Source: a virus (lineage: Duplodnaviria; Caudoviricetes). From it: a stretch of DNA of 64,000 nucleotides. Made by a program: the position numbers and the translations under genes. Shown here one piece after another: positions 47,945 through 63,515 of the stretch. Every line of letters begins with the position of its first letter. Position 1 is the first letter of the stretch. The stretch covers positions 1 to 64,000 of IMG/VR virus record IMGVR_UViG_3300043391_000370; one strand, 5' to 3'. The notes under the pieces were generated by a model. The model was not told the origin of the DNA. It saw nothing but the letters and a program-made list of their open reading frames with translations, and ran no database searches.

Positions 47945-48632
47945 ATCGTTCTCTTGGATAAAGTGCATGATAATGATCAACAGCACTATAATGAATTGAT
48001 CTTACCTTTGGTTTGTTGGTTGCTAACCACACCTCATAACAGAATCGATGCCCACCTAGTTTTTCGGTGAGACTCTCATCATAATATAAAGTTCTGTCCA
48101 ATACATTTGGAAGTGTTTTGATATAGTCGGTAGTTGCCCACCAGAAGTTTCCAGAAAAATGTGGATAGAACTCATGAGTCCAGTTCGTAGAAACTGCATC
48201 TACCTGATCATCTTCAATTTTCTGAACACAATCTTTCCACCTTTCAATTGACCAGTAGTTCATATAGTGTCTCCAGTCTTCTACAGGTGGAGAACCATAT
48301 TGTAGCATACCTTTGGAGTGAATGTAAAGGACATATCCATCATTTGTTTTTGAATATGTCTGAAGTTCTTTAAGTGTTTGCCCTTCGAAGAGATTCTCCT
48401 GTTCACCTTTTCCAGACATTACTCTAGAAGATAAAATATTTACAAAAGGAAACTTCTGTTTAATAAAGATTTTGATTTCATTTACGGCAAAATCAGGTGC
48501 GGCAAAGCACATATTAACCGTTGCCGCATCTGCCAAACCACTTGACTTTACGAGTGATAGTTGCTCTGTCACAATCTTATCCCAGGCACTATTCATGGCA
48601 CCTAGGTGATAAAATACTGCAAGTTTTTTCAT
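47931..48632 (-). CDS. Stand-alone paralog of the HxKG/GNFWW domain
   Basis: LYIHSKG...WRHYMNYW...HFSGNFWWA...RFCYEVW. Confidence 0.7.
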   Translation of the reverse strand: MKKLAVFYHLGAMNSAWDKIVTEQLSLVKSSGLADAATVNMCFAAPDFAVNEIKIFIKQKFPFVNILSSRVMSGKGEQENLFEGQTLKELQTYSKTNDGYVLYIHSKGMLQYGSPPVEDWRHYMNYWSIERWKDCVQKIEDDQVDAVSTNWTHEFYPHFSGNFWWATTDYIKTLPNVLDRTLYYDESLTEKLGGHRFCYEVWLATNKPKVRSIHYSAVDHYHALYPRERYAQL

Positions 48633-49312
48633 ACTACAATATTAGACTTAACGTGCCCCACGACTACAGTTGGATCAACAAAAACTTGATGACCATTTTG
48701 TGCGACTCTATCACACCAGTCCAGGTCTTCACCCAATGGAAGTTCATAAATGACTCCATCAACTTCCTGAACAACTTTGCCAAGACCATACCAAGGACGT
48801 TTGATACCTTCAAAGACTCCTTGCTTGACGCACATGAAACCAAGACCAACACCATAGACTGGAAATGAATCTCCGACTTGCTGAAGTAATGAGATCTCAT
48901 CTCTAGTCATCGGACGATAATCATCTTTGTTTTGATGAATCATGGCATCGGCACCTTGTGCCTCAAAATAGACACCAGAAATAATATCCTGTTCTGAACT
49001 ATAGAGTTTCAGAAAGTGCTCAGGATTCCAGACAATATCACTATCGATACAGAATAGTTTATCATAAGTGTATTGTCCTTTGCCTGGTTGAGAATTAAAG
49101 ACTTCTAACTGACGACTACCAGTAATGGTTGCTTCTCTTGCATTCGTGACAATCGAAGCATACTCATTCTGATAGTGCCAGGTCAGTCCATTTGCCTGAA
49201 GAGCCTGAATGGTTCCTAGCAAAGACTTAACATACTCCGACACCATGTTACGACCTGGTGTCGTAATGACCACATTAAAGTGTGGTTTTTGATTATTTTG
49301 ATATTTCATCAT
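48629..49312 (-). CDS. GT-A (GT2-like) glycosyltransferase
   Basis: DxD motif CIDSDIVW; GLGFM.VK.GVFE....PW; GEDL.WC; VGHVK. Confidence 0.75.
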   Translation of the reverse strand: MMKYQNNQKPHFNVVITTPGRNMVSEYVKSLLGTIQALQANGLTWHYQNEYASIVTNAREATITGSRQLEVFNSQPGKGQYTYDKLFCIDSDIVWNPEHFLKLYSSEQDIISGVYFEAQGADAMIHQNKDDYRPMTRDEISLLQQVGDSFPVYGVGLGFMCVKQGVFEGIKRPWYGLGKVVQEVDGVIYELPLGEDLDWCDRVAQNGHQVFVDPTVVVGHVKSNIVV

Positions 49313-50034
49313 AGTACGATCATTTTTTCATGTCCAACTCTAACCTTTGGATTACACCAAATCTCAAAACCATATTCCCTAAAGTCCTCACACATCGCAA
49401 CATCTTCTGAGCACATGTCCTCAAGAATAACTCCATCCTCACGAATGAGTTGAACTTTCTTTGGTGCAAACCAAGGATAAGGAATCTTCTCAAAGACACC
49501 TTTCTTCATCAGAACCCAACCAAATCCACAGTACTCAATCTTAAATGGTCCTGGTCGTCTTTGCATATCTTCAATTGTCTCAAAGTAATAAGAACCTTTG
49601 TTCATCAAAAGTTTCTTATCCATATCAACGACGACTGTGGACTGATTGGATGATGCAGTTCCATTTGATTGGACATACCAACCAGTCGAAATATCCTTAT
49701 CCATCTCAAGAAGGTCTAAGACATTCTGTGTATTGAAAACAATATCACTATCGATCCACATAATATAATCATAATTAACCTGACCTCTCCAGGGAGTCAG
49801 CATCGTTCCGGCAAAGTTATCTGCCTGCAAACAATCAGTTCGGGCAAAGTTTACCATCGAACTATAGTGTTGAGAGATGTAAAAATTGATTCCGAGTTGG
49901 TTTAAATCAAAAACCAATCGAATGAATTGTGTGAGAAATGTACCTGAATATGAACGACCCGGAAGACAGAAGGCAATTGTTTTTCCTTTAAAATCATTCT
50001 TCGGTTGATTCGAATAATTTAGCATAAATGACAA
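49309..50034 (-). CDS. GT-A (GT2-like) glycosyltransferase, paralog of 48629..49312
   Basis: WIDSDIVF; GFGWVL.KKGVFE..PYPWF; SEDV.MC; VGHEK. Confidence 0.78.
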   Translation of the reverse strand: MSFMLNYSNQPKNDFKGKTIAFCLPGRSYSGTFLTQFIRLVFDLNQLGINFYISQHYSSMVNFARTDCLQADNFAGTMLTPWRGQVNYDYIMWIDSDIVFNTQNVLDLLEMDKDISTGWYVQSNGTASSNQSTVVVDMDKKLLMNKGSYYFETIEDMQRRPGPFKIEYCGFGWVLMKKGVFEKIPYPWFAPKKVQLIREDGVILEDMCSEDVAMCEDFREYGFEIWCNPKVRVGHEKMIVL

Positions 50035-50070: not shown

Positions 50071-53000
50071 TTACCACCAGGTAATTTTAACATATCCATC
50101 CCCACCATCTCCACCGACACCAAAGGTTTGATTTTCATCTGCATATGCACCACCACCTCCACCACCTCCACGATCCCCATTACCACCATCACCGGCAATT
50201 CCTATTGAAGTTATAGAAGATGAAGATAGGGTTCCAGAAACACCAGCTGCGGCATAACCAGCAGCACCATAGGTAATTGAATTCAAAAGGTTTGTTGTGG
50301 TGGATGTTCTTGATGTCCAGGTGATCGCATCCGTGGAGAGTCTGATTACACCACCAGCACCGACTGCATAATAGATGCTGTTCAAATAACTTAATCTAAA
50401 AATTGCAGAAGTACCAAAACCTGTTGTTCTTTGTTCCCAAATGATTGTATCTGTGGATGTTCTAAGCAATCCAGCATTACCACCGGCAAAGAATACTGTA
50501 CCATAACTTACGGCATTAATGTTTGTTGTACCAAATCCTGTGGTTCTTAGTACCCAAGAAATCGTATCAGTCGAAGTGATAATAGTATTGGTCACACCGA
50601 AATAATCACTTGTTGCCGCAACATAATAATTACTATCATAAGTGAGTGCAGTAATGGACTGAACATTTGTCATAACCGTGGTTCTTAATGTCCAGGAAGC
50701 AGTATCTGCAGAAACGGCAAAGTATGCACCATTCACACCATAAGATGATAGAAGTGTCTGAGTCGATGCAGTTAGAGTTCCTGCTGCACCGGCAAGTAGG
50801 TAGTTATTATTACCATAGACTGAAGTAGAAATTGCCGTTGTACCAAATCCAGAAGTTCTTGCAGTCCATACAATACCATCAGTCGAAGTTCTACTGATTG
50901 CACTATTACCGGAAGCAACATATATTCCATCACCATAAACATAAATGATACTGTTGACATTTATCGTACCAAATCCAGTAGTTCTTGTTGTCCAGGCAAT
51001 TGCATCTGTTGAAGTTCTTAATGTTGCAGCACCACCAGCAATATAGATTGTTCCATAAGTTAATGCAAGTATACTAGAAGTACCGAATCCAGTAGTTCTT
51101 GAAGTCCAGACAATTGAGTCCGTGGATGTTCCAAGCAATCCACCATTACCACCGGCAACAAAAAGAGTTCCGGCAGTAAAGGCATTAATTTGAGTTGCAC
51201 CGAATCCTGATGTTCTTTCAGACCAGGTGATATTATCAGTAGAAGCAATCAAACTTCTAGCATTTCCAAGATAGTTGGTGCCTGTTGCAAGATTATAACT
51301 TAGTTGCGTGGTTGTAGAAGTTGTTATGGTTCCACCATAACCACCGGCAACAAGAATATTATTTGCAAAAAGTAATTGAGCACGAACGATTGATGTTCCA
51401 AAACCAGGGTTTCTTAAAGTCCAGGTGATTGCATCTGTTGAAATATTTAATCTTCCACCATCACCACCAATAACATAAAGATTATTTGCATAAAGTAAAG
51501 ACCAAATGCTTCCCCCAGTAAATCCAGAAGTTCTTAATGTCCAGGTGATTGCATCTGTTGAAGTGCCTAAAGATGGACCACCACCAATACTAGCAGCAAC
51601 ATAAAGACCATTCCCATAAACTAAAGAATAAATGATTGTTGTACCAAATCCAGAAGTTCTTTGTGTCCAGGTGATTGCATCTGTTGAAGTGTTTAAGATT
51701 GCACTATCACCAGCAGCAACATAAAGATTATTTCCATAGACTACAGAAAAAATATATGAACTACCAAAACCAGAGCAAGTTCTTAATGTCCAGGTAAGTG
51801 AGTCTGTGGATGTTGACAGATTTCCAGACTGATTTCCAGTTACATACTGATTATTTGCATAAATGATTGACCACGTTTGCGTGGCAGGTGTGGTTCGGTA
51901 TTGCCAGACAATTCCATCAGTTGAAGTATTTAAGAATCCACCATCACCACTTAGGAAATAAGTATTATTTGCATAAGTTGAAGTGATAAAATTATCAACC
52001 ATACCATTAGAAGTTCTTTGAGTCCAGGTGATAGTATCTGTTGAAGTGACTATAGTTCCACCACCACCAGCAGCAACATAAAGACCATTCCCATAAGTTA
52101 GAGCATAAATGACTGATGAACCAAATCCAGAGGTTCTTTGAGTCCAAGTACTGAATGGAACTAAAGTACCACCATTTACAGCAGTAAGAGTTTGAATATT
52201 AAGTGCGGTACTTCTAACAGTCCAGGTGATTGTATCGGTTGAAGCATTCAAAGTAACACCAGTACCAAAAGAACCAAGAATACTTTGAGGGGTTGAAATC
52301 ATTCTTCCCGTAATACCACTCATCACAAAAGTCTGATTGCCATAAACTGAAGCAGTAATTGCACTTGTACCAAATCCTGATGTTCTAAGTGTCCAAACAA
52401 TAGCATCCGTTGAAACTAATTGAGTACCCGCAACACCACCAGAAGCATAAACATTATTATTATAAACTAGAGTGTTGATGACTGATACACCAAATCCAGA
52501 AGTCTGTAGTGCCCAGTTAATTGTATCAGTTGAAGTTGTTAAGAAAGGTTGACCGATATAGTTTGTACCGGCAGCAACATAAAGAGATTCACTTGTGGTT
52601 AATGTCGTAATCGTTTGAGTATTAAGTCCAGTACTTCTGAGTGTCCAGGTGATTGTATCAGTCGAAGAACTTAGATATGCACCATTACCAAAGGAAGAAA
52701 GAACAGTATCATTTGAAGTAGTCAGAGTTCCACTTGCACCACCGGCAAAATAAATGTTATTTCCAAAAGTCAGAGCATTAATTTGTGATGTACCAAATCC
52801 AGAAGTTCTGAGTATCCAGGTTATTGCATTTGTAGAAGTTGCCGATACACCATTTACACCAACTGCCGTAAAGACTGATTGCCCATAAGTTAATCCAAGA
52901 ATATTGTTTGCACCAAATCCCGAAGTTCTTAATGTCCAGACAACTGAATCTGTAGAAGATGATACCAATCCACCATTACCACCGGCAAGATAAAGTGTTG

Positions 53001-56000
53001 CTCCATAAGAAATTGCACGAATATCTGTTGTACCAAGTCCAGAAGTTTGTACAATCCAACTGGTTGAATCACGAGAATATGTAATTGTTCCAGAGGCACC
53101 ACCAATAAGATAGAGTCCATCAACAGTTGAATATAATCCGGCATAAATTGTTGATGTACCAAAACCAGAAGTTTGTGCAGTCCAGGTGATTGTATCGGTA
53201 GAAGATGTAAGTGTTCCTGCATCACCACCAGCAATATAGATTCCTAAATCACTTGAGTAGGTTGTTTCATAAATGATTGAAGTACCAAAACCAGAGGTTC
53301 TCAATTCCCAAGTAATTCTATCCGTTGAAGTGGTTAATGTTCCAGCAGCACCACCGGCAACAAAAGATGTTCCATAGGTCAAGGCATTAATTAAAGTCGT
53401 ACCAAAACCAGAAGTTCTTAATATCCAGTTAATGGAATCAGTTGAAGTATTGATGATTCCAGCATCCCCACCGGCAATATAAAAATTATTTCCATAGGTC
53501 AAAGCATTAATTGAAGATGTACCAAAACCAGTAGTGGTTCTTGTAGTCCAAAGAGTTGAAAGTGTGGCACCGGCAGCAACATAAAGATTATTAGTATAAC
53601 CAAAAGCATTAATTGCTAGTGTCGTTCCAGAGGTTCTTTGAGTCCAAACAATATTATTAGTAGAGACTTGTAGATTTCCATTTACCGCAGAAAGGTAATT
53701 GGTTCCTGTTAGGAATGAATAAGATCCACCAGAACCTAGTGTTGTAATTTTATCCAGATTAAGAAATCCAGTAGTTCTTAATGTCCAGTTAATCGCATCA
53801 GTCGAAGCACTTATTACTCCACCATCACCAAGATTAGCAAGTGTGGTTTGTGTTGTAGATGTTAATGTGCCAGCATCACCACCATTTAGATAAGTATTGT
53901 TTCCATAAACAAGTGCTCGTATTGTGGTGCCACCGAATCCTGATGTTCTCAAAGTCCAGGTGATTGCATCTGTAGAACTGATATTTGCACCAGCAACACC
54001 AGAAGCAACATAAACTCCACTATTATGGGCAAGACCAACGAAACTTTGAATTACACCAGCAGTTCTTAATGTCCAGGCAATTGCATCTGTTGAAGTTAAA
54101 ATTGTTCCACTTACACCAGAGACAACATAAACACCAGCATAAAGAGATTGATATAATGCATTTGCGGTTCCTGATGTTCTTGCAGTCCAGGTAATTGCAT
54201 CGGTAGAAGTTTGAATCACACCGGCATTACGTGTTAAAAGATAAGTCGGTGTCGGTAAACTAGAATAATTAAGTGACTGGATAGAATTAGTAACATCACC
54301 AGATGTTCTTATAGTCCAACGAATAGCATCAGTAGAAGTAAATACTGTTACCGAACTAGTAAAAACATAAGTGGATATTGGAGAATCACCATAAGCAATT
54401 GCCACAATACTAAGAGTTGTAGCAGTTCTTTGTGTCCAGGCAATAGTATCTGTAGAAGTTCTTAAAAGTCCAGAACCACCAGATAATACATAAGGTTCAT
54501 TACCTGTAGTTGCAGAACCAGATTTTCCGGCAACATACAGAAGTCCATTACCACCAGAAGATTGACCAATAGTGGCTGCTGTTCCAGAAGTTCTAGAAGT
54601 CCAGGCAATACCATCTGTAGATACTACCAATCTTCCACCAGTACCAGCAGCAAGGAAGTTAGTACCATCATATATTGATGTATAAATTGCAGAAGTACCA
54701 AATCCAGAAGTTCTTTGATCCCAAATAATATTTGCACCACCAATAAGAATCTCACCATTAAAGAATGTTGCAGTATTAATTATAGATGGACTGGTTGATG
54801 TGGTTCTTGTAGTCCAGGCAATTGCATCTGTAGAAGTTCTGGTTGTAATATTACTGGCAGCAAGGTAAATATTATTTCCAAAGGCAAGTGTAGAAATTGT
54901 GGATGTACCGAATCCAGCAGTTCTGAGGAACCAAATTGTAGAAACAGAAGCACCTCCGGCAACGAACTCATTATTAAAGAATGTCATCGCACCAATTGCA
55001 GTCGTTCCGAATCCAGAGGTTCTAATTGCCCAGGAAATTGTATCGGTAGAAGCAGTTAAGAGTCCACCAGCACCGGCAGCAGCATAAAAATTATTACCAA
55101 ATGCAAGTGTGGCAATTGCAGAAGTACCAAATCCTGATGTTCTTTGATTCCACATCGTGGTGATTGTTGCACCACCGGCAAGATAAAGACCGTTATTATA
55201 TCCTAGTGCCGTGATTGGTTGGTTATTGGCAATACCAGGATTTCTTGATGTCCAGTTAATCGTATCCGTAGAGGCAATTATAAAACCTTCGTTTATATAA
55301 TTAGTACCACCGGCAAGATAAAAAGTATTATCAGAGAATGTTGTAGTAATGGTTTGAGTATTGATTCCTGTGGTTCTAAGTGTCCAATTGATCGTATCAG
55401 TAGAGATACTAAAGTGAGCACCATTACCAAACGAAGAAACTTGTGCATCTAAAGCAGTAGCAATTGTTCCACCACTACCAGCAGCATAGAAAGATCCAGA
55501 ATTATATAATAACTGGCCGATTGTGGATCCACCAAATCCAGAAGTCCTAGTGACCCAAGTAATTCCATCTGTTGATGTCGTAACTGTATTTGTTCCAGAA
55601 TTAACTTGACCTCCAGCAACATATACACCATTACCATAACTCAAAGTATTAATAAAGACTGTACCAAATCCTGCTGTTCTTAATGTCCAGACAATTGTAT
55701 TTGTTGAAGTGTTTAGAACTCCACCTTGCCCACCCGCAAGATAAAGATTATTTGCATAAAGTAAAGAGTTAATGTTGGAAGTACCAAATCCAGAAGAAGT
55801 TCTTGAAACCCAAGAAATTGAATCGGTCGAAACTCTAATTGTTCCACCAGCACCACTAGCAAGATAAGGATTTGGTTGCCCAGAAGCATAAATTAATCCG
55901 TTTCCAGCAGCAAAATTACCAATACCAGATGTACCAAATCCAGAAGTTCTTAAAGTCCATGCAATTGTATCTGTTGAAGTGTTTATAATTCCAGAAGTAG

Positions 56001-58251
56001 CACCAAGAAAATAATTAGTACCATCAAACATAAAAGTGTAAATAGAGGATGCACTAACTGCAGCACTTCTTAAAGTCCAGGTTATTGTATCCGTAGAAGC
56101 AATTAAAATTCCCAAAGTACCCCCGGCAAGATAGATTCCATTACCATATCCTAGTGAAAGAATACCTGATGTACCAAAACCTGAAATGGTTGTTCTTTGA
56201 GTCCAGGTGATTGAGTCTGTAGATGCTGACAGAGTTCCGGTTATTCCACCAGCAACATAAAGATTGTTGCCAAATGTAAATGCCTGGATAATGGTAGAAC
56301 CAAATCCTGATGTTCTTTGAGTCCAAAGAGTTGATACTGCAACACCAGCAGCATAATAAGTCGTACCCTTATATCCAAGAGCATTAATTGTTTGAGTAGT
56401 ACCAAAAGTTCTCAAATTCCAAGTTGATAGTCCAGATGAGAATGCTCCACCACCGGCACCACCACTACCGATGCTTCCAGTATAAGAACTTAGAATACTT
56501 GCTGCTCCATTTGTTCCGGCATTTGAACCACCAGTAACAGTATAACTATTTCCATAATAGTAAGAGGTAACACTACCACCACTATTCGTATTATAAGCAC
56601 CACCGGCACCACCAGTCGGTTGATAAGGTACTGATGGTGATGTTGCATTAATTCCAGTTCCAAGTACAGAAAGACCGGCACCACCAGCAAGACCGGCAGT
56701 TGTATAGAATGGATTTACAGTAGATGCAGTTGCCGCACCTGCTGGACCTGCCGTGACTGCCGTATCAGAAGCACCAGTACCACCGGCAGCACTTAAGGTA
56801 TAAGTAAGTGTCCCGTCAGTAATATGAGGTATTCCAGTCCAGGTTAAAGTTGTTGCGGAACCTGATGATGTACTGTTAACAACATTAAGATTACCAGTAG
56901 TGCCTACAAGATAAAGACCATTTAAGTATTCAGTTGTCCATGCAATACCATAATTCTGAACAAGTGCGGTTCTTTGTGTCCAAACTATCGTATCGGTAGA
57001 AGTCGCAACAAATCCAGTTGGTGCCGATGTAACTCCAATATTAATAGCAGCACCACCAGAAGCAACATAAACACCATTACCATAAGTTATAAACCATGTC
57101 GATGATTTACCAAACCCAGAAGTTCTATAAGTCCAGGTGATTGCATCTGTAGAAGTGGTTAGTACTCCAGCAGAACCACCGACAACATAAAGATTATTCG
57201 CAAACTTAATTGCTTTTACATCAGTATAACCAAATCCAGAAGTTCTTTGTGTCCAGGTGATTGCATCTGTTGAAGTGTTTAGAACTCCACCATTACCAAC
57301 GGCAACAAAAGATGTTCCATAAGCAAAAGTATTAATAGTTGTTGTACCAAAACCAGAAGTTCTTTGTGTCCAGGTAATCGAGTCCGTTGAAGTATTTAAG
57401 ATTCCACTATCACCACCGACAACATAGGTATTGTTTGCATAAAATGAGGTATAAATGTTTGATGTACCAAAACCAGATGAAGTTCTTAAAGTCCAGGCAA
57501 TTGCATCTGTTGAAGTTTGAATCAATCCAGAAAATCCACCAATTACAAAAATATTATTCCCATAAATGATAGACCTACTAACAGTAGTTGGTGCCGCAGA
57601 AGTTCTTAAAGTCCAAATAATTGTATCTGGAGAAGTATATATTGATACAGAAAAGGAAACATAAACACCATTACCATATGCTAATCCAAAAACAGTATTA
57701 TTAGTGGCTCTTGGTCTCCATGTAATACCATCAGTACTTACAGATAATCCACGATTTCCTGCAAGACCACGAGTACCAGGTGTTACGGTAATCGTAGAAG
57801 CACCGGCAAGTTCTGGACGACGAATGATCCAAGAAGCATAGGCACCAGAACCTCCACCGGCAGCGGCACCTAATGTACCTGTTGGTCTTCCTGCTGATCC
57901 CGCACCACCTGCACCAATTGCCTCAATATAAAGAGTCGATGCACTTTGAGGAACATAAAAGGTTTGTGCAAATGGTTGTGTAAACTCCTGAGCACCTTTA
58001 TAAGTTACTGCATTACTTGCCGATGAAGTTAATGGTTTCCAACTGGTTGAACTACTTGAATATGGTGATGTGAGTAAGGTTCCAGTACCACCACCAGAGA
58101 TTACATAATTATCCGATGTCTTTGTGGAGTATAATAAAGATGAAGTATTCGAAGTTCTGAGTGTCCAGGTGATTGAATCCGTCGAACTAAGTACTGCACC
58201 AGTTAATGGACTTGTCGCAATATAAGTATTATTGATGTAATTGATCTTCAT
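50071..58251 (-). CDS. Giant virion-associated repeat protein (2726 aa): Gly-rich scaffold plus 56 STDxxxWTxRT (Asp-box/Ycf48-like) repeats
   Basis: Repeat unit STD(A/T)I(T/A)WTxRTSGFGxxxIxxxxYGNNxYVAGG; Gly-rich domain ending GGDGYVKITWW. Confidence 0.85.
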   Translation of the reverse strand: MKINYINNTYIATSPLTGAVLSSTDSITWTLRTSNTSSLLYSTKTSDNYVISGGGTGTLLTSPYSSSSTSWKPLTSSASNAVTYKGAQEFTQPFAQTFYVPQSASTLYIEAIGAGGAGSAGRPTGTLGAAAGGGSGAYASWIIRRPELAGASTITVTPGTRGLAGNRGLSVSTDGITWRPRATNNTVFGLAYGNGVYVSFSVSIYTSPDTIIWTLRTSAAPTTVSRSIIYGNNIFVIGGFSGLIQTSTDAIAWTLRTSSGFGTSNIYTSFYANNTYVVGGDSGILNTSTDSITWTQRTSGFGTTTINTFAYGTSFVAVGNGGVLNTSTDAITWTQRTSGFGYTDVKAIKFANNLYVVGGSAGVLTTSTDAITWTYRTSGFGKSSTWFITYGNGVYVASGGAAINIGVTSAPTGFVATSTDTIVWTQRTALVQNYGIAWTTEYLNGLYLVGTTGNLNVVNSTSSGSATTLTWTGIPHITDGTLTYTLSAAGGTGASDTAVTAGPAGAATASTVNPFYTTAGLAGGAGLSVLGTGINATSPSVPYQPTGGAGGAYNTNSGGSVTSYYYGNSYTVTGGSNAGTNGAASILSSYTGSIGSGGAGGGAFSSGLSTWNLRTFGTTQTINALGYKGTTYYAAGVAVSTLWTQRTSGFGSTIIQAFTFGNNLYVAGGITGTLSASTDSITWTQRTTISGFGTSGILSLGYGNGIYLAGGTLGILIASTDTITWTLRSAAVSASSIYTFMFDGTNYFLGATSGIINTSTDTIAWTLRTSGFGTSGIGNFAAGNGLIYASGQPNPYLASGAGGTIRVSTDSISWVSRTSSGFGTSNINSLLYANNLYLAGGQGGVLNTSTNTIVWTLRTAGFGTVFINTLSYGNGVYVAGGQVNSGTNTVTTSTDGITWVTRTSGFGGSTIGQLLYNSGSFYAAGSGGTIATALDAQVSSFGNGAHFSISTDTINWTLRTTGINTQTITTTFSDNTFYLAGGTNYINEGFIIASTDTINWTSRNPGIANNQPITALGYNNGLYLAGGATITTMWNQRTSGFGTSAIATLAFGNNFYAAAGAGGLLTASTDTISWAIRTSGFGTTAIGAMTFFNNEFVAGGASVSTIWFLRTAGFGTSTISTLAFGNNIYLAASNITTRTSTDAIAWTTRTTSTSPSIINTATFFNGEILIGGANIIWDQRTSGFGTSAIYTSIYDGTNFLAAGTGGRLVVSTDGIAWTSRTSGTAATIGQSSGGNGLLYVAGKSGSATTGNEPYVLSGGSGLLRTSTDTIAWTQRTATTLSIVAIAYGDSPISTYVFTSSVTVFTSTDAIRWTIRTSGDVTNSIQSLNYSSLPTPTYLLTRNAGVIQTSTDAITWTARTSGTANALYQSLYAGVYVVSGVSGTILTSTDAIAWTLRTAGVIQSFVGLAHNSGVYVASGVAGANISSTDAITWTLRTSGFGGTTIRALVYGNNTYLNGGDAGTLTSTTQTTLANLGDGGVISASTDAINWTLRTTGFLNLDKITTLGSGGSYSFLTGTNYLSAVNGNLQVSTNNIVWTQRTSGTTLAINAFGYTNNLYVAAGATLSTLWTTRTTTGFGTSSINALTYGNNFYIAGGDAGIINTSTDSINWILRTSGFGTTLINALTYGTSFVAGGAAGTLTTSTDRITWELRTSGFGTSIIYETTYSSDLGIYIAGGDAGTLTSSTDTITWTAQTSGFGTSTIYAGLYSTVDGLYLIGGASGTITYSRDSTSWIVQTSGLGTTDIRAISYGATLYLAGGNGGLVSSSTDSVVWTLRTSGFGANNILGLTYGQSVFTAVGVNGVSATSTNAITWILRTSGFGTSQINALTFGNNIYFAGGASGTLTTSNDTVLSSFGNGAYLSSSTDTITWTLRSTGLNTQTITTLTTSESLYVAAGTNYIGQPFLTTSTDTINWALQTSGFGVSVINTLVYNNNVYASGGVAGTQLVSTDAIVWTLRTSGFGTSAITASVYGNQTFVMSGITGRMISTPQSILGSFGTGVTLNASTDTITWTVRSTALNIQTLTAVNGGTLVPFSTWTQRTSGFGSSVIYALTYGNGLYVAAGGGGTIVTSTDTITWTQRTSNGMVDNFITSTYANNTYFLSGDGGFLNTSTDGIVWQYRTTPATQTWSIIYANNQYVTGNQSGNLSTSTDSLTWTLRTCSGFGSSYIFSVVYGNNLYVAAGDSAILNTSTDAITWTQRTSGFGTTIIYSLVYGNGLYVAASIGGGPSLGTSTDAITWTLRTSGFTGGSIWSLLYANNLYVIGGDGGRLNISTDAITWTLRNPGFGTSIVRAQLLFANNILVAGGYGGTITTSTTTQLSYNLATGTNYLGNARSLIASTDNITWSERTSGFGATQINAFTAGTLFVAGGNGGLLGTSTDSIVWTSRTTGFGTSSILALTYGTIYIAGGAATLRTSTDAIAWTTRTTGFGTINVNSIIYVYGDGIYVASGNSAISRTSTDGIVWTARTSGFGTTAISTSVYGNNNYLLAGAAGTLTASTQTLLSSYGVNGAYFAVSADTASWTLRTTVMTNVQSITALTYDSNYYVAATSDYFGVTNTIITSTDTISWVLRTTGFGTTNINAVSYGTVFFAGGNAGLLRTSTDTIIWEQRTTGFGTSAIFRLSYLNSIYYAVGAGGVIRLSTDAITWTSRTSTTTNLLNSITYGAAGYAAAGVSGTLSSSSITSIGIAGDGGNGDRGGGGGGGAYADENQTFGVGGDGGDGYVKITWW

Positions 58252-58304
58252 CTATTATACACCTTTCTGTTGGAAATTATAATTCAACGGACACATTTTA
58301 ATTC

Positions 58305-58311
58305 TATTTAG
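58305..58311 (-). promoter_or_regulatory. Late-type promoter CTAAATA between the two giant genes
   Basis: Within the 83-nt intergenic gap; RBS-like AAAGGTG precedes the ATG at 58251. Confidence 0.5.
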
Positions 58312-58334
58312 ATTGATTACAAAATGGTAATATA

Positions 58335-61300
58335 CTAATATCCAGAAGTTCTCTGAGTCCAGGTAATTGTATCTGTTGAGACTGCAAAGGAACTACCTGT
58401 ATCACTTGCAATATAAAGACTATCCTTACCAACAAAGGTAATATCATCCACAGAAGAAGTTCCAAATCCAGAAGTTCTTAAGTACCAAGTAACAGTATCA
58501 ATTGAAGTAGCAATTGTTCCAGAATCACCAACAATAAAATAAGTTGCATTATAATATTTAACACCATTAATTATTGTTCCCATAGTAATTCCTGTTGCTC
58601 TTGTAGTCCAGATAATTGAATCCGTCGATGCCGCAATTATTCCAGGTCTTCTATCATAATCTGAGAACGATGCCAGATAATATTGACTTCCCAAAATAAC
58701 ATGATCTAATTGCTGTACGTTCACAGAAGAAGTTCTTAATCTCCAGGAAATTGCATCGGTGGAAACAATAATAGTGGCACCATCTCCACGATTCGTTAGA
58801 GAACTATAAGTTCCGGTAGCAACATAACCAAATGATGAAACCTGAACATAAGTATCATTATTATAAGCAATACCATTAATTATATCAGTAATACCAGAGG
58901 TTCTGGCAATCCAGATTACACCATCAGTTGAAGCAGAGTTACCACCACCACCAGAAGTTACATAAAGATTATTGGCATATAATACATTTCGAGTACCACC
59001 CGTAGCAACAGTTCTTAAAGTCCAGGTGATTGAATCTGTGGATGTTTGAATAATTCCAGCACCAGATGGAGAAATGTGTCCAGCAACATAAAGATTTGTA
59101 CCATTATAAGTTATACCATTAATTGGATATCCTGGTTGCCTATAAGCAGATGTTCTTAATACCCAAGAAACGGCATTTGTGGAAACTGCAATTGATGTAT
59201 TGCCATCAAAATCACTAAATCCACCGACAAACTTCAGACCATCATAGAAAAAGGTATTTGCATCTTGAACATTTGATACTGTGGTTCTAACAAACCAGTT
59301 AATGGTGTCTGTAGATGCCGATAAGAATGCACCATTACCTGGATTAGTGAGTGATGCATAGGTTGCCGTACCCAGAATACCAAGCTCTCCAGAAAAAATA
59401 AATTGATTATTTGCATAACTTAAAGTAAAAATATTTCGGGTTACTCCAGAAGTTCTAAGAGACCAAGTAATTGTGTCTGTTGAGATTGCTGTGCCACCTG
59501 TAGATGCACTAACAACATAAAGTCCATTATCATAAGCAAATGAATAGATAGTTGTTGAACCAAATCCAGAAGTTCTTAGTGTCCAGGTGATTGCATCTGT
59601 TGAAGTGTTTAAAGTTCCACCACCGGCACCACCAAGAATATAAGTACCGTTCTGATACAACATTCCATAGATTGTTGCACCAGTACCTGATATGCCAGCA
59701 GTTCTTAACGTCCAGGTGATAGTATCTGTCGATGTTATAATAGGTGGAATTTCACCAGATCTCCCACCACCACCAGCAACATAAAGACCATTACCATAGA
59801 TTAATCCTCGACTATCTCCAGTATTAGTAAGTCCGGTTGTTCTTAGTGACCAGAAAATTGCATTTGTCGAAACTGAAATTACACAATCATTTGCAACACC
59901 AAGAGATTCTCCAGAAACACCAGAACCAACATAAAGACCATTAACATAGATTAGTGCTCGATAAAATGCGGTTGTTCCAGAAGTTCTTTGTGTCCAGGCA
60001 ATTGCATTTGTTGAAGACGTAATGGTTCCACCCCGACCATTCAAAACATAAGTACCGGCATTATAAACAAACCCATGTATTGCACTCGTACCAAATCCAG
60101 AAGTTCTAGCAGTCCAGGTGATTGTATCCGTAGAAGCAATTAAGAGTCCACTATTGCCACCAGTAACGTAAAAACCATTCTGATAAATTACTGTTCCCAT
60201 TCCACCAAATCCAGAAGTTCTTAAAGTCCAGGCAACAGTAGGATTCAAACCACCAATCAAATAAAATCCACCACCAAAATAAACAGTATTTACAGTCTTA
60301 CCATAAGACCTAGAAGTTCTTAAAATCCAGGTGATATTATCAGTCGAAGCAGAAGTCACACCAGGAATTGAGAAATAATCAGTTCCGGAAGCAACATAAT
60401 AAGAACTCGAAGCAGTTAGTTTATCAACCTGAACCATTCCTGATGATGTGGTTCTTGTAGTCCAGGAGACTGCATCAGTAGAAACATTCAGTCTTGCACC
60501 ATTACCTAAGGTTGTTAAGATACTTGCAGATGCTGATTGAAGTCTTCCTGTGGTTCCAGAAGTTATGAAAGTATTATTACCGGCAGCAGCACGATGCATT
60601 AAAGTAACAGATTGACTTATAGTAGATGTTCTTGATATCCAAATGATTCCATCAGTTGATGTTCTTGTAGAACCTCCAGCAGTAGCAAGCACAAAAATAT
60701 TATTTGCATATACTAAATCTCTAGATATTGATGTTCCTAGTGACCCAGTTCTTAATGTCCAAGTGATTGTATCTGTGGAAGTTTGTATAATGCCATTATT
60801 ATCACTCGAAACAGTAACATAAAGATTTGAACCATTTGTACTAAGAACTGCAGTATAATTTGATGCTGCAGCAGTTCTTGCAGTCCAGTTAATCGTATCT
60901 GTGGAAACTGCAAGTGTTGTATTGGAATTATAATTACTCAGAGCAGCAAGATAAAGTGAAGAACTGGAAGTGATCGCATCTACTTGCTGAACATTCGGTA
61001 TTGAAGTTCTTATGTCCCAGGTGATATTATCAGTAGAGGTTGATAGAAGTGCTCCGTTTCCTAGATTTGTGAGTTGTGAGTATGTTGCCGTGGTTAGAGT
61101 TCCATTATCACCACCAGCAACATAAGTATTATTGCCAAAGGTTAATCCAATTATACGAGTTGAACCAAATCCAGAAGTTCTTTGTGTCCAAGTGATAGTA
61201 TCTGTTGAAATGATTAATGTTCCACTATTACCTGAAGCAACATAAAGATTATTTCCATAAAGAAACTCATATAAATTAACTGCAGTTCCAGAAGTTCTAA

Positions 61301-63479
61301 AAGTCCAGGCAATTGTATCTGTTGAAGTGGTTATAAGTCCACCATTACCACCGGCAACATAAGTATTGTTTCCATAAACTAATGATTGAATTGCATTCGT
61401 ACCAAATCCAGAAGTTCTAAATGTCCAAGTGATTGCATCTGAGGATGTTGCTAAGGTTCCAACAACACCACCAGCAACATAAAAATTATTACCAAATGTA
61501 AGTGTTTGAATATTAGTATTGCCAAATCCTGAAGTTCTATAAGTCCAAGTGATTGCATCTGTTGAAGTGGTTATAGTTCCACCCGTACCACCAGCAACAT
61601 AAAGGTTATTTGCATAAGTAATTTCAAATATACTACTTGTACCAAATCCAGAAGTTCTCTGCTCCCAAGTAATAGTATCTGTTGAAGTCGATAATACATT
61701 TGCACCAAATGCATTAGCAACATAAAGATTATTTCCATATGTTATTGCAAAAATTTCAGTTGTACCAAATCCAGAAGTTCTCAAAATCCAACTGATTGAA
61801 TCAGTCGAAGTACTTATGAGACCATTTCTTCCATTAATTGTATAAAAATTATTTGCAAAAAGGATATTACTTATTTGTTCTGCAGTTCCAGAAGTTCTTA
61901 AAGTCCAACTTACAACAAGACTTAAACCACCAACCAAATATCTACTATCATCGGCATAAAGTGAAGTAATCGCATTTCCACTCACACCAGCAGTTCTTAA
62001 AGTCCAAATGATATTATTTGTAGATACAGAAATAATACCTCCCACACCAGCATAAGTACAATTTGATGCAAGATAATATGAGGAATTAGAAGCAAAATAA
62101 TCGACTTGTGCAATACCTGATGTTGTGGTTCTTGTAGTCCAGGATACTGCATCGGTAGAAGCAGTTAGAAGAGCACCATTATCAAGAAGTCCTGATGCCG
62201 TGGTTAAAGTTCCACCACTACCACCAGCAACATAAAGATTGTTTACATAACGTAACATACTAATAAGTGATGTACCAAATCCAGAAGTTCTATAAGTCCA
62301 GGTGATTGCATCTGTTGAAGTGGTTAATCTTCCATTATCACCACCAGCAACATAAGTATTGTTTGCATAAAGTAAAGATAGAATATGTGTAGAACCAAAT
62401 CCAGAAGTTCTTAAAGTCCAGGCAATTGTATCTGTTGAAGTGTTTAGAGTTCCACCAGTACCACCTACAATATAAGTATTGTTTGCATAAAGTACGGAAC
62501 GAATCTGTGATGCACCAAATCCAGAAGTTCTTTGAGTCCAAGTGATTGAATCAGTTGAAGTGTTTAGAACTCCACTAAACCCACCAGCAACATAAAGATT
62601 ATTTGCATAAATTAAAGGAATAATAACTGTTGCACCAAATCCAGAAGTTCTTAGTGTCCAGGCAATTGAGTCTGTCGAAACTGATATTCCACCATCACCT
62701 GCAATATAATAATTACTGTTTGCATAAATTAATGATGCAATAGTTACCGAAACACCAGAAGTTCTTAGTGTCCAGGCAATTGAGTCTGTTGAAGTGTTTA
62801 GAGTTCCACCAGCACCAGCAGTAACATAAAAATTATTTTCAAAAATAATTGCTCTTATGGTACTTACACCAAATCCAGAAGTTCTTTGAGTCCAATTATT
62901 CAAAGAATCATAAAGACCACCAGCAAGAAAATATCCCTGACCAAAGACTACATCATTAATATCAACACTACCAAACCCAGAAGTTCTTAATGTCCAGGTA
63001 ATTGTATCAGTATATCCACCGGCAACAAAGTATCCATTTCCATAGGTTACGTCATTAACTGTAGTAGTTCCAAATCCTGAAGTTCTTAAAGTCCAACTTA
63101 AACTTCTATCCGTGTCACCACCGGCAAGGTAAATATTATTCCCATAAACAACATCATACAATATCGCATTTGAAGCAGACGTTCTTAAAGTCCAAGATAC
63201 TGCATCCGTAGAAGTATTTAATATTCCTGTACTACTTCCTCCAACGGCAACATAAAGATTATTGGAATAAAGGAGTCCGTTAATATTATCTGTACCAAAA
63301 CCAGCAGTTCTTAAAATCCAGACAACTCCTGGAGATGGATCAACTTGCAAAAAGGTATTAGCAGCTGCCGTTGTAACTGATGCAAATGAGGCATTATCTA
63401 CATACTCTTTGTTTACAACATCAGTAGAATTGGATACTACACTTACATCAATAACCTTATTACTGTCTAATGTTGCCAT
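58335..63479 (-). CDS. Giant repeat protein (1714 aa) with 40 WTxRT repeats
   Basis: Same repeat family as 50071..58251; N-terminus has a DVVNKEYVD fibre-type motif. Confidence 0.85.
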   Translation of the reverse strand: MATLDSNKVIDVSVVSNSTDVVNKEYVDNASFASVTTAAANTFLQVDPSPGVVWILRTAGFGTDNINGLLYSNNLYVAVGGSSTGILNTSTDAVSWTLRTSASNAILYDVVYGNNIYLAGGDTDRSLSWTLRTSGFGTTTVNDVTYGNGYFVAGGYTDTITWTLRTSGFGSVDINDVVFGQGYFLAGGLYDSLNNWTQRTSGFGVSTIRAIIFENNFYVTAGAGGTLNTSTDSIAWTLRTSGVSVTIASLIYANSNYYIAGDGGISVSTDSIAWTLRTSGFGATVIIPLIYANNLYVAGGFSGVLNTSTDSITWTQRTSGFGASQIRSVLYANNTYIVGGTGGTLNTSTDTIAWTLRTSGFGSTHILSLLYANNTYVAGGDNGRLTTSTDAITWTYRTSGFGTSLISMLRYVNNLYVAGGSGGTLTTASGLLDNGALLTASTDAVSWTTRTTTSGIAQVDYFASNSSYYLASNCTYAGVGGIISVSTNNIIWTLRTAGVSGNAITSLYADDSRYLVGGLSLVVSWTLRTSGTAEQISNILFANNFYTINGRNGLISTSTDSISWILRTSGFGTTEIFAITYGNNLYVANAFGANVLSTSTDTITWEQRTSGFGTSSIFEITYANNLYVAGGTGGTITTSTDAITWTYRTSGFGNTNIQTLTFGNNFYVAGGVVGTLATSSDAITWTFRTSGFGTNAIQSLVYGNNTYVAGGNGGLITTSTDTIAWTFRTSGTAVNLYEFLYGNNLYVASGNSGTLIISTDTITWTQRTSGFGSTRIIGLTFGNNTYVAGGDNGTLTTATYSQLTNLGNGALLSTSTDNITWDIRTSIPNVQQVDAITSSSSLYLAALSNYNSNTTLAVSTDTINWTARTAAASNYTAVLSTNGSNLYVTVSSDNNGIIQTSTDTITWTLRTGSLGTSISRDLVYANNIFVLATAGGSTRTSTDGIIWISRTSTISQSVTLMHRAAAGNNTFITSGTTGRLQSASASILTTLGNGARLNVSTDAVSWTTRTTSSGMVQVDKLTASSSYYVASGTDYFSIPGVTSASTDNITWILRTSRSYGKTVNTVYFGGGFYLIGGLNPTVAWTLRTSGFGGMGTVIYQNGFYVTGGNSGLLIASTDTITWTARTSGFGTSAIHGFVYNAGTYVLNGRGGTITSSTNAIAWTQRTSGTTAFYRALIYVNGLYVGSGVSGESLGVANDCVISVSTNAIFWSLRTTGLTNTGDSRGLIYGNGLYVAGGGGRSGEIPPIITSTDTITWTLRTAGISGTGATIYGMLYQNGTYILGGAGGGTLNTSTDAITWTLRTSGFGSTTIYSFAYDNGLYVVSASTGGTAISTDTITWSLRTSGVTRNIFTLSYANNQFIFSGELGILGTATYASLTNPGNGAFLSASTDTINWFVRTTVSNVQDANTFFYDGLKFVGGFSDFDGNTSIAVSTNAVSWVLRTSAYRQPGYPINGITYNGTNLYVAGHISPSGAGIIQTSTDSITWTLRTVATGGTRNVLYANNLYVTSGGGGNSASTDGVIWIARTSGITDIINGIAYNNDTYVQVSSFGYVATGTYSSLTNRGDGATIIVSTDAISWRLRTSSVNVQQLDHVILGSQYYLASFSDYDRRPGIIAASTDSIIWTTRATGITMGTIINGVKYYNATYFIVGDSGTIATSIDTVTWYLRTSGFGTSSVDDITFVGKDSLYIASDTGSSFAVSTDTITWTQRTSGY

Positions 63480-63515
63480 TTACTTCGAGTCTCCGTAATG
63501 ATATTTATTGATCAT

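Follow-up and report, generated by a model that had tools for sequence, protein, structure and literature searches.

Can a closed propeller domain be broken between two neighbouring genes and completed again by their protein products? The question is raised by a 64,000-nt stretch of viral DNA (hereafter the window), the first 64 kb of the 81.7-kb IMG/VR virus record IMGVR_UViG_3300043391_000370, for which a completeness of 38% is estimated. Two giant genes lie next to each other in it. Gene 1 (P0001, 58335..63479) encodes 1714 amino acids (aa) and gene 2 (P0002, 50071..58251) encodes 2726 aa, and an 83-nt spacer (58252..58334) separates them; genes and spacer are all on the minus strand, to which the coordinates of their parts below also refer. 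Both open reading frames (ORFs) are intact across their 1714 and 2726 codons. We find that the two genes very probably arose by fission of one ancestral gene, with the cut inside a seven-bladed propeller that we call the root, and that their products may well rejoin by completing this propeller in trans.

Both proteins are built of ~40-aa units of the form I..L.Y.NN.YVAGG..G.L.TSTD.I.W..RTSGFG. Nearly every W-strand is preceded by S-T-D-x-I-x-W, a variant of the Asp-box motif in which the Gly position is occupied by I or V. The units were parsed as nested sets, taking as an 'entry' a W-strand without an Asp-box that lies ~33 aa after the previous W, and as a 'return' a spacing of at least 50 aa. 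Counted per nesting level, the W-strands number 7/7/7 in G003, 7/7 in L015 and 7 in each of L032 and L028; the parse failed for G001, L029 and L009, which left unbalanced brackets. For gene 1 and gene 2 combined, up to the glycine-rich domain of gene 2, the levels hold 7/7/14/13. The root level reaches seven only when the proteins are combined, with six W-strands in gene 1 (residues 54, 96, 1579, 1624, 1665 and 1707) and one in gene 2 (residue 29), so that each product carries an incomplete root compared with the seven W-strands of uninterrupted homologous roots. The initial annotation of the window had also counted seven repeats in the joined root. Every seven-W unit starts with a W-strand that lacks an Asp-box, continues with six blades that have one and finishes with strands 1-3. 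Six Asp-boxes per seven W-strands agree with the rule that an Asp-box propeller of n blades has at most n-1 of these motifs, always placed between strands 3 and 4 (PMC2716378).

The root begins near the N-terminus of gene 1. Its N-terminal part (63114..63362, residues 40-122, from alignment A1 and the parse) comprises a scaffold strand (FLQV), a closing W-strand (VVWILRT, ~63306-63332), blade 1 and the first two strands of blade 2, after which the nested insert starts. The whole insert within blade 2 spans residues 123-1563. The chain returns from it in the C-terminal part (58338..58790, residues 1564-1714, alignment A2), which provides strands 3-4 of blade 2 followed by blades 3, 4 and 5 and ends ...WTQRTSGY. 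Gene 1 therefore contains five full root blades, the N-terminal closing strand and the propellers nested inside, with 40 Asp-box-like W-strands altogether. It carries the N-terminal motif shared by the family, lacks the glycine-rich domain and ends in STDTITWTQRTSGY and a stop codon (...AVSTDTITWTQRTSGY-TAG, the TAG at 58335..58337).

Gene 2 takes up the root where gene 1 leaves it. The protein starts MKINYINNTYIATS (ATG-MKINYINNTYIATSPLTGAVLSSTDSITW; ATG-MKINYINNTYIATSPLTGAVLSSTDSITWTLRTS), and alignment A3, placed on the AlphaFold2 model described below, assigns residues 1-33 (58153..58251) to a complete blade 6, strands 1-4 with the Asp-box STDSITW. Residues 36-62 (58066..58146) form strands 1-3 of blade 7, and this final segment of the root ends in GTLLTS, as do the exits of the other seven-repeat units. 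With a single exception, known Asp-box propellers close in a 1+3 arrangement with an N-terminal strand (PMC2716378); by this rule, the N-terminal W-strand of gene 1 is expected to serve as the fourth strand of blade 7. A 'return' strand, SSSTSWKPLTS (58024..58056, residues 66-76), corresponds to QxWxPxNS of unsplit homologues and to strand E306-308 of the model, and leads into the glycine-rich domain. The first segment of that domain (57742..57999, YKGAQEFT...LYIEAIGAGGAG...) served as a unique anchor for matching homologues. After its one and three-quarter root blades, gene 2 thus consists of the glycine-rich domain with 55 more W-strands in nested propellers, for a total of 57; it lacks the N-terminal motif and ends GDGYVKITWW.

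Across 50071-63479, the W-strand repeats parse as recursively nested seven-bladed propellers in as many as four levels; the insertion point of each is the strand 2-3 hairpin of a blade one level up. This nesting seems more unusual than the split itself.

Was the root once encoded by a single gene? Related loci were anchored on the downstream GT-A-like gene, on the start of the glycine-rich domain and on genome handles. Every related contig with both ends visible has a single ORF upstream of the GT pair, with an N-terminus of the form MA[TIS]LDSNKV...NKxYVD and the C-terminus GYVKITWW. These syntenic homologues have 11 distinct lengths (1185, 1276, 1526, 1860, 1862, 2409, 2719, 2985, 3328, 3589 and 4380 aa), and 14 more unsplit homologues of 1528-3374 aa came from a set of 5.8 billion proteins, which makes 25 distinct homologues in total. 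The N-terminal motif occurs in gene 1, in two paralogues and in all homologues, and gene 2 alone is without it. Among the ~135 loci screened, gene 1/gene 2 is the only clean pair of the glycine-rich family in which one member has the motif without the C-terminus and the other the C-terminus without the motif. A possible second split in L014 was rejected, since that gene has a single in-frame stop near the contig end instead. The stop, at ~170-175 in a glycine-rich stretch (GGG-stop-GAF), reflects a sequencing error or else a separate disruption of the gene.

In BLASTP comparisons with the closest homologue, of 3589 aa, residues 1-1710 of gene 1 are colinear with residues 1-1755 at 53% identity, scoring far above out-of-register alignments of the repeats, and residues 3-1789 of gene 2 align with residues 1766-3588. 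The initial annotation had proposed that one ancestral gene was split and that unsplit homologues should be sought. Both the homologues, 11 of which are syntenic, and the alignment across the break bear this out, and we consider a real fission of a single ancestral gene, derived and specific to this lineage, to be very probable. Length alone does not force a split, because the 4380-aa homologue is a single ORF. In searches of a phage collection with the junction region, blastn returned no match and tblastn one distant match only, in phage DSL-LC01, annotated as a photosystem II assembly factor; a cluster look-up found neither protein in a 15-billion-protein collection. L132, a 94%-identical relative found through the downstream GT gene, gives a ratio of nonsynonymous to synonymous substitution rates of 0.37-0.47 against gene 2, which is uninformative on the split because its contig ends 2 kb short of the junction.

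The orthologous gene, at 1185-4380 aa, gains and loses whole seven-blade cassettes (L009, L015, L020, L023, L028, L029, L032, L012+L050, L016+L051 and L022+L053). L023 and G005 have no root propeller, and their N-terminal motif runs straight into the glycine-rich domain.

The position of the cut was read from a predicted structure. AlphaFold2 was given residues 25-352 of homologue L032, an uninterrupted root, together with an alignment (A6) of 87 seven-W sequences in register, and returned a closed seven-bladed propeller of 7 x 4 strands with a mean predicted local distance difference test score (pLDDT) of 87.8 and a predicted template modelling score (pTM) of 0.83. The N-terminal W-strand, E27-31, is the sole spare strand for blade 7 in this model. 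Residues 27-302 superpose on complete seven-bladed propellers with Z ~31 and a root-mean-square deviation of 2.2-2.9 A over 270-283 residues. All seven-bladed propellers tie at Z ~31, and the Foldseek matches include Ycf48, with a TM-score of ~0.7 and the highest identities, 14-16%. The model was examined through its secondary structure and its superpositions. A first run with a 16-sequence alignment (A5) gave a pLDDT of 53.5 and was discarded; a MAFFT alignment (A4) was also set aside, because in mixing fragments with whole roots it shifted the blades against one another.

With alignments A2 and A3 as the bridge, the last residue of gene 1 maps to model position 233, just past strand 4 of blade 5, and Met1 of gene 2 to position 239, second in strand 1 of blade 6. 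Gene 1 can also be placed as ending after strand 4 of a blade because Asp-boxes sit between strands 3 and 4. By the model, the cut is thus in the inter-blade loop between blades 5 and 6 and not within a blade, and the root-piece alignments indicate that ~5 (4-5) residues of the unsplit proteins, GxxxI, are absent there. Gene 2 had been described in the initial annotation as starting in mid-repeat; it does continue the root, but structurally the break lies between blades, and the mid-repeat appearance follows only from the phase chosen for the repeat.

We picture the ancestral gene as a late structural, tail-fibre-like gene that would have encoded an N-terminal attachment motif, a root propeller with nested propellers, and a glycine-rich domain with more propellers. 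At the cut, ~5 codons of the blade 5/6 loop are replaced by a stop codon, the 83-nt AT-rich spacer and a new ATG. Gene 2 would be transcribed by read-through from gene 1 as well as from a late promoter of its own, CTAAATA, and translated from its own ribosome-binding site. The gene 1 root would be left open, with five blades and the N-terminal closing strand, and what it lacks, blade 6 and strands 1-3 of blade 7, would come from the first ~62 residues of gene 2. These would slot in with blade 5 on one side and the N-terminal strand of gene 1 on the other, creating a hybrid 'velcro' blade like that of Sec13-Sec16, and the next strand of gene 2 (SWKPL) would pair with the FLQV strand of gene 1. 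Through this non-covalent joint the 2726-aa distal half, itself devoid of an attachment motif, would be linked to the motif-bearing half, and the ancestral architecture would be rebuilt. Given the strand counts, the 1+3 rule, the homologue model and the precedents below, we put the probability that the two products rejoin by in-trans completion of the root propeller at roughly 60%. More tentative, and in our view slightly short of an even bet, is the further step that this propeller is the sole joint of the two giant fibre subunits, with ~2,700 aa tethered by the donation of one and three-quarter blades, the hybrid velcro blade included. The distal part so tethered comprises the glycine-rich domain and some eight propellers. 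Judging from its lack of the N-terminal motif, gene 2 would depend on gene 1.

In-trans completion of a propeller is known in principle. In Sec13-Sec16, Sec16 gives three strands of the seventh blade and residues 1-6 of Sec13 its outer strand, over an interface of 2,820 A^2 (PMC2922654). Sec13 with Sec16, Sec31 or Nup145C is an open six-bladed propeller closed in trans to seven (PMC2922654), and we infer the same geometry for blade 7 of the root. The Sec13 pairs are, however, ancient and obligate WD40 partnerships of eukaryotic coat proteins, whereas the present case involves an Asp-box propeller and a recent fission whose unsplit homologues are extant. Here, unlike the Sec13 partners, the donor would add one whole extra blade, in a pairing predicted from sequence and from the homologue model. 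A precedent in phages is the nozzle propeller of Pseudomonas podophage A1002, which cryo-electron microscopy shows to be split between gp42 (nozzle-base) and gp39 (nozzle-rope) and complemented in trans (PMC13730344). There too a phage tail protein that is normally a single chain is split in two, and strands of one part fill blades of the other. A1002, though, concerns a podovirus nozzle whose genes are not a simple adjacent head-to-tail fission, in contrast to the fibre-like protein of a T4-like cyanophage considered here, with its clean cut in an inter-blade loop and a spacer bearing a promoter-like motif. Propeller rings can also assemble from separate chains carrying few blades each, and the rings in question are homo-oligomers of identical fragments (PMC6805158); here the chains would be two different ones, with five and a quarter and one and three-quarter blades. 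We regard the root as a new instance of in-trans propeller completion, in an Asp-box propeller of an uncultured cyanophage.

The spacer is AT-rich (24% GC versus 37% for the genome). In the gene 2 frame, TAA TAG (58252..58257) stands directly before the ATG, so that this ATG is the first possible start codon. A Shine-Dalgarno-like AAAGGTG (58260..58266), a putative ribosome-binding site read from the sequence, ends 8 nt before the ATG, and a late-promoter-like CTAAATA (58305..58311) lies 53 nt upstream of it; a similar motif, ATAAATA (63502..63508), is found 22 nt upstream of the gene 1 start. The ORF ends, the 83-nt gap and the motifs inside it had all been given correctly in the initial annotation. 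A search for a terminator in the spacer between the genes found none. No similar copy of the spacer was found in the genome or in the related loci (~53 at first, later ~135 scanned), and for want of a second copy a mobile promoter cassette could not be shown.

On the sense strand, CTAAATA is intergenic in all four of its copies, and intergenic DNA, 6.5% of the genome, contains 17 of the 27 copies of [AC]TAAATA, most of them 17-55 nt upstream of start codons. Enrichment and position fit a T4-type late promoter (TATAAATA-like), and we treat the copy in the spacer as a candidate; the runs that contain the stretch include no RNA runs. Copies at 63502, 58305, 41229, 34127 and 33310 are examples, the usual distance to the start codon being 17-30 nt. 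From these positions in the sequence, the [AC]TAAATA set looks like a usable late-promoter map for the phage.

Both halves also appear to have been retained. A variant from an independent sample (X3) differs from the window by nine substitutions flanking the split, seven of them synonymous; the other two, A130S in gene 2 and I1595V in gene 1, are conservative. Since X3 shares the split, these differences arose after the fission, barring recombination. The synonymous excess has a binomial p = 0.0014 for a random synonymous fraction of 0.25, and p ~0.01 in a hand calculation that allows for transition bias (0.35). To the initial annotation the split had looked functional rather than like a sequencing frameshift; the junction is indeed real, and function receives indirect support from the motif enrichment, the persistence of the junction and the synonymous bias.

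Several observations weigh against completion in trans. The split is found in only one lineage and may be tolerated rather than useful. The gap of 53 nt between promoter motif and ATG in gene 2 is the second-longest of the listed intergenic spacings, most of which are 17-31 nt (others are 49 and 38). Split variants differ by ~0.8%, so the split looks young, and for that reason intact ORFs and nine substitutions are weak proof of long-term selection. Finally, the AlphaFold2 model is of a homologue that is 39-55% identical in the root pieces, and not of these two proteins.

The foremost competing explanation, which we think unlikely, accepts the fission and denies the reassembly. Gene 1 would then be a shortened fibre with an open or defective root, and gene 2 would go unattached, be held through a different contact or be in the process of disappearing, the split being a recent, tolerated lesion in an accessory protein. 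Its confinement to one lineage and the <1% divergence among the variants that carry it agree with such a lesion, as do homologue lengths of 1185-4380 aa, which imply that large parts are dispensable. Yet gene 2 retains a 2726-codon frame, canonical N-terminal blade motifs, a promoter-like motif and a ribosome-binding site, and most of the nearby substitutions, on either side of the split, are synonymous. Four studies, with deposition dates in 2022 and 2025, have samples in which the lineage appears. Propeller fragments, too, generally do not fold alone and readily complement one another (PMC2922654, PMC6805158).

Synthesis of a single polypeptide by recoding (a frameshift, or a bypass of the T4 gene 60 type) or by splicing of an intron is very improbable. 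The end of gene 1, GGA TAT TAG, is loosely like a take-off site, the psbA-like gene of this genome is in two pieces, and introns are known in cyanophages. The two ORFs, however, are in different frames, with 86 nt from the first base of the stop to the ATG, and in the frame of gene 2 the codons TAA TAG come right before the start. A ribosome that landed on the one TAT in the vicinity would go on to read AAT AGA TGA and so run into a stop, and no landing codon opens into gene 2. The spacer has no take-off stem-loop or stable hairpin and no significant RNA fold (z = 0.64), and it has no match in Rfam to an intron or other RNA family; a group I intron would also be far larger than 83 nt. With no open landing, hairpin or Rfam match, the bypass, frameshift and intron readings were rejected.

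The junction itself was checked by comparing contigs from public runs with positions 57700-58900. A 2351-nt contig of the probable source sample spans the whole of this stretch without indels, and X3, from another study, provides a 1459-nt contig over 57902-58900 with seven substitutions, no indels and an unchanged spacer. X6 and X8, from two further studies, cover most of the spacer and show no difference there (X8 at 58252-58277 and 58318-58334, X6 throughout in two abutting pieces). The split allele circulates in nature. The genes consist of ~100 similar 120-nt repeats, and short repeat-derived contigs pile up at 58340-58379, as a chimeric join or collapsed repeat might produce, but an assembly or sequencing artefact of this kind is very unlikely to be the explanation, because the spacer is unique, non-repeat sequence and independent contigs share the junction. 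Exact-pattern scans of viral and metagenome contigs for the spacer and for TAG-ATG-KINYINN found nothing, and hence no carriers of the split beyond those runs.

To which propeller family does the root belong? It shares ~40-aa repeats, n-1 Asp-boxes and a predicted 1+3 closure with the Asp-box (BNR) seven-bladed propellers of the Ycf48/HCF136 type, and S-T-D-x-I-x-W before the W-strands and a first W-strand without a box are both present. It differs from these in that the Gly of the classical SxDxGxTW is replaced by I/V, and in that the propellers are nested in each other and in a glycine-rich domain. Neither protein matches a BNR or PSII_BNR Pfam model; the single Pfam match of gene 1 is DUF6242 (E=4e-10), and gene 2 matches nothing at E<=0.1. 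A distant bacterial match carries PF14870. Gene 2 and the paralogues share the glycine-rich motifs FTVP..YIEAxGAGGGG ... GGxGGDGYVxIxW, and PF21722 is precomputed for homologues P0009, P0012, P0013 and P0015. A search of gene 2 with hmmscan found no PF21722 match, probably because ~2000 aa of inserts interrupt the domain.

The seven-blade unit of ~280 aa also forms the single domain of many short phage proteins (~350-420 aa). Such single-unit proteins (L076, L079, L082, L089, L099, L112, L115 and L128) have unrelated termini and often occur as tandem arrays of three paralogues.

If the two products do complete the root in trans, they would exemplify natural fission of a gene within a closed repeat domain and a case of propeller fragment complementation that can be dated. 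Unsplit homologues bracket it well, and ancestral forms are still present in sister phages. One could then study what share of a propeller a second chain is able to donate, and how giant receptor-binding proteins are put together from modules, and the arrangement might let phages exchange whole distal 'branches' of a receptor-binding tree. For annotation, the 2726-aa protein would pass for an orphan if its upstream neighbour were ignored.

The record is a T4-like freshwater cyanophage. Neighbouring genes match baseplate hub/lysozyme, tail and tail-fibre families of T4 type, a psbA-like gene is present, the contig of the closest relative has PsbA/PsbD-like reaction-centre genes (identified by eye from ORF translations), and the sequencing runs that contain the stretch are freshwater metagenomes. 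Directly upstream of gene 1, outside the window, are the two paralogues, of 896 and 596 aa, which have the full family architecture: the N-terminal motif ..ITGITT...STD..NK.YVD, a hairpin 'GKFL.TDG..TSW', and a glycine-rich domain FTVP...LYIEAIGAGGGG ... GGDGYVKITWW with seven-repeat cassettes inserted in its loops. On the other side, at 48629-50034 of the window, are two paralogous GT-A-like genes (phrog_1574, with weak glycosyltransferase matches), a pair that always directly follows the giant gene in related phages and that served as the synteny anchor.

The psbA-like (Photo_RC) match falls in two pieces ~680 nt apart (L138:1501-1902 and L138:2582-3070), which correspond to 78188-78589 and 79269-79757 of the phage's own genome, outside the window. 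A 155-aa ORF (own genome 78645-79112) lies between them, and stops were counted within one of the matches. An intron or a homing-endonuclease insertion may account for this two-piece gene, and the layout is similar in the closest relative, L050.

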